From Oscillospiraceae bacterium (GTDB lineage Bacteria; Bacillota; Clostridia; Oscillospirales; Acutalibacteraceae): a stretch of DNA of 27,803 bases. Below are positions 3,904-21,960 of this stretch, in pieces; positions within the stretch are counted from its first letter, which is position 1; every line of letters starts with the position of its first letter. Under the pieces are notes generated by a model that did no database searches, was not told the DNA's origin, and worked only from the letters and a program-made list of their open reading frames with translations. A program made the position numbers and the translations under genes. The stretch lies in contig WRDE01000001.1 of assembly GCA_009783605.1 (NCBI GenBank), positions 1 through 27,803 on the forward strand. Direction: 5' to 3'.

Positions 3904-4827
3904 ATGGCATTTACCGCGAAGGATGTACAGGCGCTGCGCGAGAGAACCGGCGCCGGTATGATGGATTGTAAAAAAGCGCTGACCGAGACCGACGGCGATA
4001 TGGAGAAAGCGGTGGATTTCCTCCGCGAAAAGGGATTGGCTGCCCAGGCGAAAAAGGCCGGCCGGATCGCCGCCGAAGGCGTCGTATTTGCCACCGTCGA
4101 TACGGCGGCAAAAGTCGGCGCGGTAGTCGAAGTCAACGCCGAAACCGATTTTGTGTCGAAAAACCCCGATTTTATCGCTTTTGTGGAATCGGTGGCCGCC
4201 GCCGTCATCAAATATAACCCGGCGGATGTGGAAGCGCTGCTGCCGCTGCCCTGCGCCGGCTACGGCTCGGTGGAGGAAGCGCTGCGGGACAAGATTTTTA
4301 TCATCGGCGAAAACATGAAGATCCGCCGGTTTATCCGGTATGAGGGCGACTGCGCCGCTTATGTCCACGGCGGCGGCCGGATCGGCGTGCTGGTAAAATT
4401 CAGCGCCGACGCCACAACCGCCGGCGGCGCCGCGCTGGCCGAATGCGGCAAGGACGTGGCGATGCAGATCGCGGCCCTCAACCCGCTCTATTTAGACGAG
4501 GCGGCGGTCCCGGCGGAGGATATCGCCCGGGAGCGCGAGGTGCTGATCGCCCAGATCAAAAACGACCCGAAACTGGCCGACAAGCCCGCCAATATCATCG
4601 ATAAGATGGTGGACGGCCGGATCGGCAAGTTCTATGAGAACAACTGCCTGCTCAAACAGGCCTTCGTCAAAAACGGCGATATCACCGTCGCCCAATATGT
4701 CGCCGATTGCGCCAAAGCGGCCGGCGGAGCTTTCTCGATCGCGTGCTTCACCCGGTTTGAGAAAGGCGAAGGACTGGCAAAGCGGGAGGAAAATTTCGCG
4801 GATGAAGTCGCGAATATGATTAAGTAA
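3904..4827 (+). CDS. tsf: Elongation factor Ts
   Basis: MAFTAKDVQALRERTGAGMMDCKKAL...KKAGRIAAEG...EVNAETDFV...AMQIAA...CLLKQAFVK...RFEKGEG. Confidence 0.99.
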   Translation: MAFTAKDVQALRERTGAGMMDCKKALTETDGDMEKAVDFLREKGLAAQAKKAGRIAAEGVVFATVDTAAKVGAVVEVNAETDFVSKNPDFIAFVESVAAAVIKYNPADVEALLPLPCAGYGSVEEALRDKIFIIGENMKIRRFIRYEGDCAAYVHGGGRIGVLVKFSADATTAGGAALAECGKDVAMQIAALNPLYLDEAAVPAEDIAREREVLIAQIKNDPKLADKPANIIDKMVDGRIGKFYENNCLLKQAFVKNGDITVAQYVADCAKAAGGAFSIACFTRFEKGEGLAKREENFADEVANMIK

Positions 4828-4841
4828 TCAACACATGCACA

Positions 4842-4879
4842 AGAAATCATTGCCGCGCCTTGGCGCGGCAATGATTTCT
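4842..4879 (+). terminator. Long hairpin after tsf (probable terminator or stabiliser; weak U tract)
   Basis: AGAAATCATTGCCGCGCC-TT-GGCGCGGCAATGATTTCT, an 18-bp perfect stem. Confidence 0.6.
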
Positions 4880-5024
4880 ATCTGCACCGACGCATATAGT
4901 CGGAATTTAACACATGGGATACTTCAATGAGAGTACCACGTAAAAAAATAGCGTGGAATTGGATTATATTGGAAATTCCGGGTTTATTTTATTTATGTCG
5001 AAAAAGTGAAAAAGCCATACCGGC

Positions 5025-5054
5025 TTGACAAGGCACTTAAAAAAATGTAATACT
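5025..5054 (+). promoter_or_regulatory. Candidate sigma-A promoter of the dockerin-MltG gene
   Basis: Perfect TTGACA followed by TGTAATACT at ~17-18 bp. The -10 register is uncertain. Confidence 0.55.
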
Positions 5055-5108
5055 TTTAGTTATGATATGATTGATCTCATAAAGACATCATAAGGCAGGA
5101 GTATTGTT

Positions 5109-6128
5109 ATGCTGCGAAAACGCATGTATTCTACGGTCGGGTTATTGTTGTCGCTGTGCCTGTTCACCGGTATCTTTCAGCCGGTACAGGCGGCGTTTCA
5201 ATGGGGTGATGTGGATGGTGACGGCAAAATCGGCGTGGGAGACGCCCGGCTGATCCTGCAATATCTGGTTGGAAAGACCGCGCTTACGCCGTCGCAGCTG
5301 GCTGTTGCGGATGTGGACGGCGACGAAAATGTGACGATAGCCGACGCGCGGAAAGTATTACAGTATTTAGTAGATAAAGTTTTTTCAATAAACCCGCCGT
5401 TACCCCTGACTGTCCGGGTCACTATTCCGGAGGGAAAGACGTTGGATGAGATCGCGGCGCTGTTAGAGAAAAAGCGGGTTTGTCCGGCAACGGATTTTTA
5501 CGCGGCGGTGCAAAACGGAGATTTTTTCGACTATGATTTTATTCGGGATCTTCCGGAATCGCCGGGGCGCGGTCACCGGCTGGAGGGATATCTGTTTCCC
5601 GATACATATGAATTTTATACCGACAGCTCCGCTGCGTCGGCTATCCGCCGGATGTTGAATAATTTTACCAACAGGATCGTCCCGCTGCGCCCGATTCTGG
5701 CCGAAAGTGACCGCACAATTCATGATATCGTGCTGATGGCTTCTATCATCGAGCGGGAGGTATACAGCGCGGCCGATATGAAAAGGGTCAGCCGGGTGCT
5801 GCATAACCGTTTGCATAATCCGGCGGAGTTTCCCCGTCTGCAATGTGATTCCACCGGCGAATATGTGGACAAAGTCAACGCCGCGGGGTATATCACATTA
5901 AAAGATGAGGATTATAATACTTATCAGCGCCGCGGAATGCCGGCCGGGCCGATCAGTAATCCGGGATTAAACGCGCTGACAGCGGCGGTTTATCCCTCGG
6001 AAGAGGCATCCGTGATATCCTGCTATTTTTTCGCCTCCGATATCACCACCGGCATCACGTATTTTTCAAAAACCTATGCCGAGCATGTCGAGATATGCGA
6101 GCGGTATAAAATCGGGGTCCACCAGTAA
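5109..6128 (+). CDS. mltG: Secreted dockerin-MltG (YceG-like endolytic transglycosylase) fusion
   Basis: Signal peptide aa 1-~28. Two Ca-binding dockerin repeats (GDVDGDGKIGVGDARLILQYLVG, ADVDGDENVTIADARKVLQYLV). MltG motifs VTIPEG, LEGYLFPDTYEF, MASIIERE (catalytic Glu), LQCDST, YNTY, GMPAGPISNPG, YFFA. Confidence 0.9.
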   Translation: MLRKRMYSTVGLLLSLCLFTGIFQPVQAAFQWGDVDGDGKIGVGDARLILQYLVGKTALTPSQLAVADVDGDENVTIADARKVLQYLVDKVFSINPPLPLTVRVTIPEGKTLDEIAALLEKKRVCPATDFYAAVQNGDFFDYDFIRDLPESPGRGHRLEGYLFPDTYEFYTDSSAASAIRRMLNNFTNRIVPLRPILAESDRTIHDIVLMASIIEREVYSAADMKRVSRVLHNRLHNPAEFPRLQCDSTGEYVDKVNAAGYITLKDEDYNTYQRRGMPAGPISNPGLNALTAAVYPSEEASVISCYFFASDITTGITYFSKTYAEHVEICERYKIGVHQ

Positions 6129-6357
6129 TCAACACATACACAAGAAATCATTGCCGCGCCAAGGCGCGGCAATGATTTCTTGTCTGCGCCGACGCATATA
6201 GTCGGAGTTTAACACATGGGATACTTCAATGAGAGCAGCGCCGTGCAAAAAATTATTGCGTGGAAGCAGACTATATTTGGATATTTCCGGTTTTTTTATG
6301 TCGAAAAAATGAAAAAAGCTGCACTTGCTTGACAAAATACCCAAAAAGTTGTAATGT
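6124..6357 (+). repeat. Direct repeat copy 2 (hairpin plus cvpA promoter)
   Basis: See copy 1. This copy has a 21-bp perfect stem at 6140-6183, TGTCGAA at 6299-6305 and TTGACA at 6329-6334. Confidence 0.92.
6329..6357 (+). promoter_or_regulatory. Candidate sigma-A promoter of the cvpA-pgsA-clp genes
   Basis: TTGACA-N17-TAATGT, followed by an AT-rich leader and SD AAAGGAG. Confidence 0.55.
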
Positions 6358-6408
6358 TATTTAGATATAAAATAAAATATCCATATACAGTGAAAGGAGC
6401 GGCGGAAA

Positions 6409-21605: not shown

Positions 21606-21613
21606 CGGCTCGG

Positions 21614-21814
21614 TTTCCTGCGCGGTTCGCGGACCGCTGTCCAATAACCCTACTACACTTGGAATTCGGGAGCTTGGCTCCGCTGTGGGACTGCAGACCT
21701 CCCGCGGGAAGCATGACTTTCTGCGGACGAAGGGAGCGAGAAAACAGCGGGCAGGCACCCACCCTGCTTACGTTAGTAGCAGGTTATCGAGGACAGTTTA
21801 CGGCCGGGCGGGAA
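21614..21814 (+). ncRNA. ssrS: Probable 6S RNA
   Basis: ~200-nt rod. Closing helices TTCCTGCGCGG/CCGGGCGGGAA, CTGTCC/GGACAG and ATAACC/GGTTAT. Central bubble with GGGAGCT on the 5' side and GGCACCCACC plus a CCTGC/GCAGG hairpin on the 3' side. Apical helix CCGCTGT/ACAGCGG. These motifs are recalled from Firmicutes 6S RNAs; Rfam was not run. Confidence 0.75.
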
Positions 21815-21960
21815 TTTTATTTTAACAGCAAAAGCGCTGCGACGTACCAAAAACGCCGCAGCGTTTTTGAGTGGGGTTCGGGCCGGGCGGGAATTTTATT
21901 TTAACAGCAAAAGCGCTGCGACGCACCAAAAAACGCCGCAGCGTTTTTGAGTGGGGTTCG
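21802..21960 (+). repeat. 79/80-bp tandem duplication (6S 3' end plus terminator-like hairpin)
   Basis: 21802-21880 and 21881-21960 differ by one substitution and one A indel. Each contains AAAAACGC-CGCA-GCGTTTTT. Confidence 0.92.

Follow-up and report, generated by a model that had tools for sequence, protein, structure and literature searches.

The window analysed here is a 27,803-nucleotide (nt) stretch of DNA, positions 1 to 27,803 of contig WRDE01000001.1 in the Oscillospiraceae bacterium assembly GCA_009783605.1. Its source is a metagenome-assembled genome (MAG), called G000 below, of 2.3 Mb in 372 contigs that is 77% complete, and sequence near-identical to the window is present in termite-gut metagenome runs of two studies. 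The gene of interest, at 5109-6128 on the plus strand between tsf and cvpA-pgsA-clp, encodes P0001, a protein of 339 amino acids (aa) in which a predicted signal peptide and a dockerin stand in front of the catalytic region of the peptidoglycan-cutting enzyme MltG (YceG). It is the sole long open reading frame at the site, and the frame opens only 5 codons before the ATG. A first-pass annotation made from the letters of the sequence had already read a signal peptide-dockerin-MltG layout here, and our analysis agrees with it: the N-terminus is of the secretion type, Pfam finds both Dockerin_1 and YceG, and the motifs of MltG can be aligned. The coordinates are collected in Table 1.

P0001 begins with MLRKRMY, followed by 16-18 uncharged residues and then by PVQA/AF, where cleavage is predicted between A28 and A29; the dockerin begins 5 residues past this VQA/A site. 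The sister paralogs that are anchored by a transmembrane (TM) helix lack an AXA site, and their uncharged stretch is 21-23 residues long, compared with 16-18 in P0001 and 14 in P0003, a second dockerin-MltG described below. Judged on these features, P0001 does not have the N-terminal TM anchor of the MltG family. In about 30 other frames of G000, too, the dockerin comes immediately after a signal peptide, and aa 1-100 of P0001 aligned end to end with the N-terminal signal-peptide-dockerins of that genome at 39-55% identity. Several of these frames have a signal peptide strikingly like that of P0001, for example ...VFTGIFTVIQPVRAQEE on contig C113. We infer that P0001 is exported by Sec and cleaved after VQA.

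The dockerin matched Dockerin_1 (PF00404) at aa 33-87 with an E value of 7.7e-11 and 42.5 bits (cut-off 22.9), over positions 2-56 of the 57 in the profile, and was the second-best dockerin match in a genome-wide Pfam scan of G000. Two repeats of a calcium (Ca) loop plus a helix, DVDGDGKIGVGDARLILQYLVGK and DVDGDENVTIADARKVLQYLVDK, make up the module. Both loops could be read (D34-V-D-G-D-G-K-I-G-V-G-D45 and D67-V-D-G-D-E-N-V-T-I-A-D78), with acidic residues at positions 1, 3, 5 and 12 and with ARxxLQYLV after each of them, so that the two-repeat dockerin is indeed complete, as the first-pass annotation had claimed. The AlphaFold2 (AF2) model placed the helices at aa 43-56 and 77-90, with low confidence in that region, and dockerins in the PDB (8x39, 4uyq_B and 5nrk_B) were matched by P0001. 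The linker that follows, SINPPLPLT, is short, with three Pro in nine residues.

The Pfam YceG domain (PF02618) was found at aa 82-328 with an E value of 1.9e-54 and 185.5 bits (cut-off 32.4). The match spans only positions 56-271 of the 275 in the profile; because positions 1-55 are unmatched, the first, membrane-proximal LysM-like module is absent from P0001. Residues 39-66 of the solved structure 4IIW, which are LysM-like, gave only a 3.5-bit secondary match, and this was to the module that P0001 retains. P0001 scored 117.9 bits against the NCBIfam model TIGR00247, 'endolytic transglycosylase MltG' (cut-off 103.4), and fell far below the cut-off of the E. coli-type equivalog NF007619 (54 vs 532), as expected for a Firmicutes-type member. 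Its best sequence matches among solved structures were Listeria Lmo1499 (4IIW, 9e-30) and E. coli MltG (2R1F). E217, in ASIIEREV, aligned to the catalytic Glu of both and was invariant in an alignment of seven short-clade sequences (A1); D247, in LQCDST, aligned to the Asp of LQTDPT in the solved MltGs, and YNTYQRRGMPAGPISNPG aligned to their matching YNTY..G.P.GPISNPG motif. The AF2 model, built on 60 sequences, had predicted local distance difference test (pLDDT) values of 91-98 over aa 101-339, and a Foldseek search with it returned MltG/YceG structures only (4iiw, 8yq7, 8yoa and 2r1f; probability 1.0). P0001 keeps the conserved residue in 49 of the 50 alignment columns with at least 95% conservation across 114 homologs that have no dockerin, and differs only by the conservative L277M; these columns and the alignment to 4IIW and 2R1F confirm that the MltG catalytic motifs are intact, as had been stated before.

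In E. coli MltG, Glu218 is catalytic and Asp245 goes with lytic transglycosylase chemistry, whereas Asn at the latter position leads to muramidase products, as in S. pneumoniae MpgA; residues besides this switch position also shape the chemistry (Taguchi et al., bioRxiv 10.1101/2021.03.06.434200). According to the same study, how far from the lipid anchor the cut falls is set by the LysM-like subdomain, located between TM helix and catalytic domain. P0001 is predicted from its sequence to be a lytic transglycosylase that has neither this ruler nor the tether.

The possibility of a misassembled junction had been raised for this gene. An 815-nt Logan contig, built independently from termite-gut run X1, spans 4850-5664 with 0 differences and bridges the upstream intergenic region, the signal peptide, the dockerin and the linker into the catalytic domain, so that the dockerin/MltG fusion stands. 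In two other termite-gut runs the catalytic part, the end of tsf and cvpA were present without differences, at a depth of about 4 and with no contig across the dockerin. The Logan contigs break at the hairpins that flank the gene, as expected of repeats.

Table 1. Features of the P0001 gene, its flanks and the two other MltG genes of G000. Positions are those of the window unless a locus and contig are named.
Feature	Position	Strand	Basis or remark
Intergenic copy A	4823..5063	+	begins at tsf stop; perfect 41-nt hairpin at 4839-4879
Promoter-like TTGACA-18-(TG)TAATACT	5025-5054	+	before the P0001 gene, in copy A
AGGAG, Shine-Dalgarno-like	5097..5101	+	7 nt before ATG; from sequence
Signal peptide, aa 1-28	5109..5192	+	predicted from sequence features and by analogy with about 30 signal-peptide-dockerin proteins of the genome
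Type-I dockerin, aa 33-90	5205..5378	+	PF00404, E 7.7e-11; genome scan places the match at 5205-5369
Short Pro-containing linker, VFSINPPLPL	5379..5408	+	sequence
MltG/YceG catalytic region, aa 101-339	5409..6125	+	YceG, TIGR00247, AF2, Foldseek; without the membrane-proximal LysM-like subdomain
E217 codon	5757..5759	+	alignment; equals catalytic Glu218 of E. coli MltG
D247 codon	5847..5849	+	alignment; equals Asp245 of E. coli MltG
Intergenic copy B	6124..6368	+	begins at P0001 stop; hairpin at 6140-6183; TTGACA at 6329-6334 before cvpA
Canonical 559-aa MltG	L001:1462-3141 (G000:C30)	-	cytoplasmic tail, TM helix, YceG profile 1-271
Short 298-aa MltG, P0002	L001:515-1411 (G000:C30)	-	directly downstream of canonical mltG, in tandem

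P0001 had been taken for a paralog of MltG, and the genome does contain the separate genes that this implies. Three YceG genes are present in G000: a canonical mltG of 559 aa, a short TM form of 298 aa (P0002) and P0001. In P0002, a 21-residue TM helix and a Pro-rich stalk precede a catalytic region that is truncated as in P0001. The two are 66% identical in protein sequence and 72% identical in DNA sequence over 709 nt, and their homology starts exactly at TVRVTIPEG and runs to the C-terminus. A maximum-likelihood tree of 39 catalytic domains separated the long canonical forms from the short ones, which made up a single clade (15 rows, support 99/98) in which P0001 paired with P0002. These comparisons indicate that P0001 descends from the short TM-anchored paralog by duplication, followed by exchange of the anchor for the signal-peptide-dockerin cassette of its genome. 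Since the LysM-like subdomain is already missing from the short paralog family, the dockerin took the place of no more than the TM anchor and the linker. The earlier suggestion that the dockerin took the place of both the TM and the LysM-like part is therefore right for the former, whereas the loss of the latter is older and belongs to the short paralog.

The intergenic DNA on the two sides of the gene is duplicated. Copies A and B are 80% identical over about 245 nt and about 95% identical across the first 118 nt, at a spacing of 1301-1304 nt; each starts at a stop codon (AGTAA), and each has a perfect hairpin of 41-44 nt, with the loops inverted (TT vs AA). Since this duplication of about 245 nt lies on both sides, the gene sits between copies that supply a promoter and a terminator: upstream it has a duplicate of the cvpA promoter, downstream one of the tsf terminator. 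The order cvpA-pgsA-clp is conserved in seven relatives, in which tsf is not found within 1.5 kb upstream; because tsf is not adjacent there, it is the duplication in this one genome that speaks for an insertion into an ancestral tsf-cvpA spacer. With a cassette from its own genome and paired intergenic copies, P0001 is a clean example of module shuffling.

Members of the P0002 clade share the truncated catalytic region with P0001 and differ in the anchor, which is a plain TM helix or a zinc ribbon plus a TM helix instead of a signal peptide and a dockerin. The zinc ribbon (CPxCG...CxxCG) stands N-terminal to the TM helix in the short MltGs P0004, P0007, P0045 and P0085. Probable lipoproteins of 280-290 aa (LLGLCAC/G; P0031, P0046 and P0072) were placed in the canonical clade of the tree. 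The tandem pair of canonical and short MltG recurs, with a third copy, in G023, a genome of another genus of the same family, and MltG pairs are present in many genomes of the family, e.g. G162:C44, G293:C29 and G398:C71. Four Cys residues of P0001, C125, C246, C305 and C330 (codons 5481-5483, 5844-5846, 6021-6023 and 6096-6098), do not vary among the seven short-clade MltGs of alignment A1, and C125 hardly varies in A2, an alignment of 60 sequences; the MltGs of E. coli and Listeria carry other residues at the positions of C246 and C305 (LQTDPT vs LQCDST). These residues could form disulfides or a metal site.

The combination of a dockerin with YceG (PF00404 plus PF02618) is rare. In a collection of 5.8 billion proteins, it was found only in P0001 and P0003 among the best 120 of 6031 homologs, and a search with aa 25-140 (dockerin, linker and start of the catalytic region) retrieved the same two proteins only. 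A HMMER scan of 1.84 billion representatives with aa 25-140 gave 6193 matches, and the junction was crossed only by P0001 and P0003 among the best 150; because those 150 are dominated by multi-dockerin proteins, the scan is not exhaustive and weaker or differently built fusions were possibly missed. The same family was covered by 401 genomes of 185 genera; the catalytic domain was present in 384 of them, and a match that included the dockerin only in G000 and G023, whose genera are represented by one genome each in this set. The ESM Atlas neighbours of P0001 had YceG fused to Cu_amine_oxidN1 or PepSY and no dockerin fusion, and a search with P0001 across the genome contigs gave dockerin matches only, with no additional fusion. 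Full-text literature searches found no description of a dockerin fused to MltG, YceG or a lytic transglycosylase. The novelty that the first-pass annotation had tentatively suggested holds for the fusion, which is rare and of which these searches found no published description, but not for dockerin-borne peptidoglycan hydrolases in general, which have already been published.

P0003, the dockerin-MltG of G023, has the same layout as P0001 (signal peptide, dockerin, short linker, TVRVTIPEG) and is 54% identical to it over 93% of the length. It occurs on at least six contigs of several independent assemblies, some of whose records bear gut-metagenome names, which argues against a chimeric assembly. 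Its catalytic domain grouped with P0005, a TM-anchored paralog of its own genome (support 100/97; 69-73% identity), and not with P0001; forcing P0001 and P0003 into one clade cost 48.8 log-likelihood units (approximately unbiased test, p 0.007). Identity to the P0001 dockerin is 47% for the dockerin of P0003, which would put it 92nd among the dockerins of G000, and 55-64% for dozens of the latter; other dockerins of G023 are 59-60% identical to that of P0003. The loci differ as well: P0003 lies at the proC side in G023, and P0001 between tsf and cvpA. With the pairing in the tree, the similarity of the dockerins and the differing loci taken together, two separate anchor swaps are the simplest reading, and these sequence data suggest that the dockerin-MltG probably arose independently in the two genera. 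The alternative would be gene conversion between paralogs combined with concerted evolution of the dockerins within each genome.

Dockerins are abundant in the source genome, with 79 matches at the Pfam level and 123 frames with a BLAST-level match to the P0001 dockerin, 87 of them C-terminal and 34 N-terminal. Twenty dockerin-bearing frames were scanned with Pfam, and their partners included glycoside hydrolase families (GH2, GH3, GH29, GH43 and GH95) and a BspA-type leucine-rich repeat (LRR) as well as non-glycosidase partners, namely DUF5050, CotH-like, purple-acid-phosphatase-like and solute-binding proteins. Since dockerins are carried by glycosidases, LRR, CotH-like and solute-binding proteins alike, the dockerin would be a general surface-display tag in this organism. 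The solute-binding protein is of the ABC type (L073, G000:C58:6220-7794), the CotH-like proteins form a tandem series on C9, each with an N-terminal dockerin (L061, G000:C9:1285-3834, and neighbours), and the purple-acid-phosphatase-like and DUF5050 proteins are at loci L068, L056 and L060.

A check for cohesin-bearing proteins, which the first-pass annotation had proposed, turned up one borderline case and none more. This probable cohesin is part of an adaptor-like protein of 326 aa on C339, arranged as signal peptide-cohesin-dockerin, and it scored 23.7-23.9 bits against a cut-off of 24.1. Its sole homolog in the 5.8-billion-protein collection was P0297, which carries PF00963 and PF00404; this was too few for a profile. 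In G000, Pfam at E values up to 10 gave the same single match and phmmer/hmmsearch iteration from the C339 protein gave none, while a PDB profile search with this protein matched dockerin parts only. Its AF2 model (pLDDT 49) was too poor and was not used for a fold search, and a complex prediction that paired aa 30-185 of the C339 protein, its cohesin, with aa 28-96 of P0001, the dockerin, scored 0.06, which gives no verdict either way. No multi-cohesin or wall-anchored scaffoldin was recognised in the 77%-complete, 372-contig MAG. Divergent ruminococcal cohesins escape sequence profiles (PMC13463774), and because scaffoldins also assemble poorly, the shortage of cohesins in G000 is uninformative. 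We infer that P0001 docks, by its dockerin, on a cohesin belonging to the surface scaffolds of this organism.

A regular-expression scan returned three LPXTG-like proteins, which were considered as scaffoldins and rejected: one looks transglutaminase-like, another TasA-like, the third like no recognised family, and none is cohesin-like by eye. A secreted protein of 325 aa at G000:C42:7501-8475 (-) combines an LLPGD region resembling TasA/camelysin with a Thr/Pro stalk and a sortase-type anchor, IPKTG; immediately downstream of its gene is one for a GH29 fucosidase with a dockerin.

MltG is viewed as an enzyme tethered to the membrane, with a job that is set by where it sits relative to the lipid anchor. 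The E. coli/B. subtilis MltG (2R1F, 4IIW, 8YQ7, 8YOA) resembles P0001 in its fold, in the Glu218 and Asp245 equivalents and in YNTY..GLPxGPIxNPG. P0001, in contrast to canonical MltG, has no TM helix, cytoplasmic tail or LysM-like subdomain and has a signal peptide and a dockerin instead; since it is without the tether and the LysM-like subdomain, a role as a membrane-tethered terminase of nascent strands is not expected of it. S. pneumoniae MpgA (formerly MltG) shares the YceG fold and the catalytic Glu with P0001, but it has Asn and hydrolyses, whereas P0001 has Asp (D247).

Among dockerin-bearing enzymes, two groups come closest. One is the set of GH25 lysozymes in the cellulosome of Ruminococcus champanellensis, as reported in the citations of Morais et al. 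2016 (Environ Microbiol 18:5112) in PMC6403190 and PMC13463774; the other comprises dockerin proteins of the rumen whose annotation is lysozyme or D-Ala-D-Ala carboxypeptidase (PMC6487960). Such wall hydrolases have been read as tools of microbial competition, the 'lyticome' idea (PMC6403190, PMC6487960). As far as these citations describe them, the R. champanellensis lysozymes likewise join a peptidoglycan-active module to a dockerin in dockerin-rich gut Clostridia. They differ from P0001, which would be a YceG lytic transglycosylase and not a GH25 hydrolase, has its dockerin at the N-terminus, and for which docking to a cohesin is predicted. Dockerin-borne wall hydrolases were thus known, and what appears to be new is a member of the MltG family with dockerin anchoring, rare and possibly convergent. 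The tether and the ruler domain have been removed and the catalytic domain would be put on a cohesin-dockerin scaffold, apparently twice. If P0001 is active when docked, the wall-active enzymes of cellulosome-like complexes extend beyond GH25 lysozymes, and nature has provided a test case for the MltG domain away from the membrane. The short MltGs of Clostridia would then be a family exploring anchors (TM helix, zinc ribbon plus TM helix, lipoprotein and dockerin).

We tentatively propose that P0001 is a secreted MltG/YceG lytic transglycosylase, held at the cell surface by its dockerin, that degrades exogenous peptidoglycan. After Sec export and cleavage, the Ca-binding dockerin would bind a cohesin of the surface scaffold system, as would about 80-120 other dockerin proteins. 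The domain with E217 and D247 would then cut MurNAc-GlcNAc bonds endolytically and leave 1,6-anhydro-MurNAc ends, as the conserved residues suggest. Without a membrane tether and a LysM-like ruler, P0001 could not gauge nascent lipid-linked strands as canonical MltG does, and it would act on wall material outside the synthesis zone; in the reading that we prefer, this is the peptidoglycan of nearby cells or of wall debris in the termite gut, as has been proposed for dockerin-borne lysozymes. The two other MltG paralogs of G000 cover the housekeeping role. Because the published analogues are dockerin lysozymes read as competition tools, we lean slightly, by analogy, to a role on exogenous peptidoglycan over a role on the cell's own wall.

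Several observations weigh against this proposal. MltG-family enzymes are known for work on nascent strands and not for attack on foreign walls, and both this usual own-wall work and the housekeeping-type setting of the gene favour a role in cis. Searches of G000 for dockerin-linked wall hydrolases gave no match for GH25, GH73 or NlpC/P60, and the sole Amidase_3 was on a contig without a dockerin match; with four wall-hydrolase families lacking a link to dockerins, there is no 'lyticome' set in this genome. AnmK and MurQ, which would allow use of the anhydro-MurNAc products, were not found, a negative that is weak in a genome that is only 77% complete. As to docking, the 77%-complete, 372-contig MAG yielded a single borderline cohesin. 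Finally, no convincing convergent substitutions set the two dockerin forms apart from their TM sisters; T310 alone changed in both, to different residues.

The same molecule, docked in the same way, might instead work in cis and trim the mature wall of its producer. Outer-layer turnover, making room for or releasing wall-anchored scaffold complexes, and cell separation are possible purposes. We regard this role as a real possibility. MltG paralogs are wall-maintenance enzymes of their own cell, the gene is driven by a housekeeping-type promoter copy, and both lineages with the fusion have large sets of dockerins (79 and 48 at the Pfam level, in MAGs that are 77% and 69% complete). That no catabolic route for anhydro-MurNAc turned up, and that no other secreted lysin with a dockerin was found in the four families searched, points in the same direction. 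However, the search for an anchoring scaffoldin yielded only three LPXTG-like proteins that bear no likeness to cohesins, and the published dockerin lysozymes have been interpreted as acting on other bacteria. In a narrower version, the two independent anchor swaps would have been selected for a scaffold-mounted transglycosylase that cuts the cell's own peptidoglycan at the sites where scaffolds are attached, which we consider rather unlikely; if it were true, own-wall cutting would serve the insertion, turnover or programmed release of complexes, and the function would be remodelling and not that of a weapon.

It is also conceivable, though unlikely, that P0001 is secreted but that its dockerin does not bind a cohesin and acts as a Ca-binding spacer, in self-association or on another ligand, which would make P0001 a free or loosely bound enzyme. 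The contrast between one borderline cohesin and about 80-120 dockerins in the assembled G000 would fit this, as would the second lineage, G023, in which no Pfam cohesin was found. But both MAGs are fragmentary, repeat-rich scaffoldins assemble poorly, and cohesins of the ruminococcal type evade sequence profiles (PMC13463774); moreover, the P0001 dockerin has both Ca loops, highly symmetric helices and 55-64% identity to dozens of glycosidase dockerins in G000.

A quite unlikely alternative is that the signal sequence stays uncleaved and anchors P0001 in the membrane, where the dockerin would recruit a cohesin partner to the membrane-proximal synthesis zone. The sister paralogs are all membrane-anchored, which is in its favour; yet the uncharged stretch, at 18 aa (14 aa in P0003), is shorter than the 21-23 aa of those sisters, an AXA-type site directly follows the hydrophobic stretch with the dockerin 5 residues on, and the layout recurs in about 30 exoproteins of the genome, glycosidases among them, that carry an N-terminal dockerin. 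That the fusion is an artefact of chimeric assembly or a decaying pseudogene is very improbable: the source is a metagenome assembly with many dockerin genes and with repeat hairpins that break the Logan contigs, but a separate contig spans 4850-5664 without differences, P0003 repeats the layout on six or more contigs that come from several independent assemblies, and the frame is intact with 49 of 50 conserved positions kept.

Relatives of the flanking hairpins, 45-65 nt long with a TAATCAACACAT-like lead and 78-86% identical to the window hairpin, are present on at least 25 other contigs of G000 (C86, C11, C23, C143, C52, C71, C85, C38, C45 with three copies, C117, C94, C33, C222, C207 and others). 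Several lie directly after the stop codons of dockerin genes, e.g. C52:6745, C143:2932, C117:938 and C85:6786. Rfam has no family for the flanking hairpins, which could be shared terminators or substrates of recombination for module shuffling. Elsewhere in the window, a 6S RNA (RF00013) was found at 21612-21818 (+) with 51.5 bits, above the gathering score.

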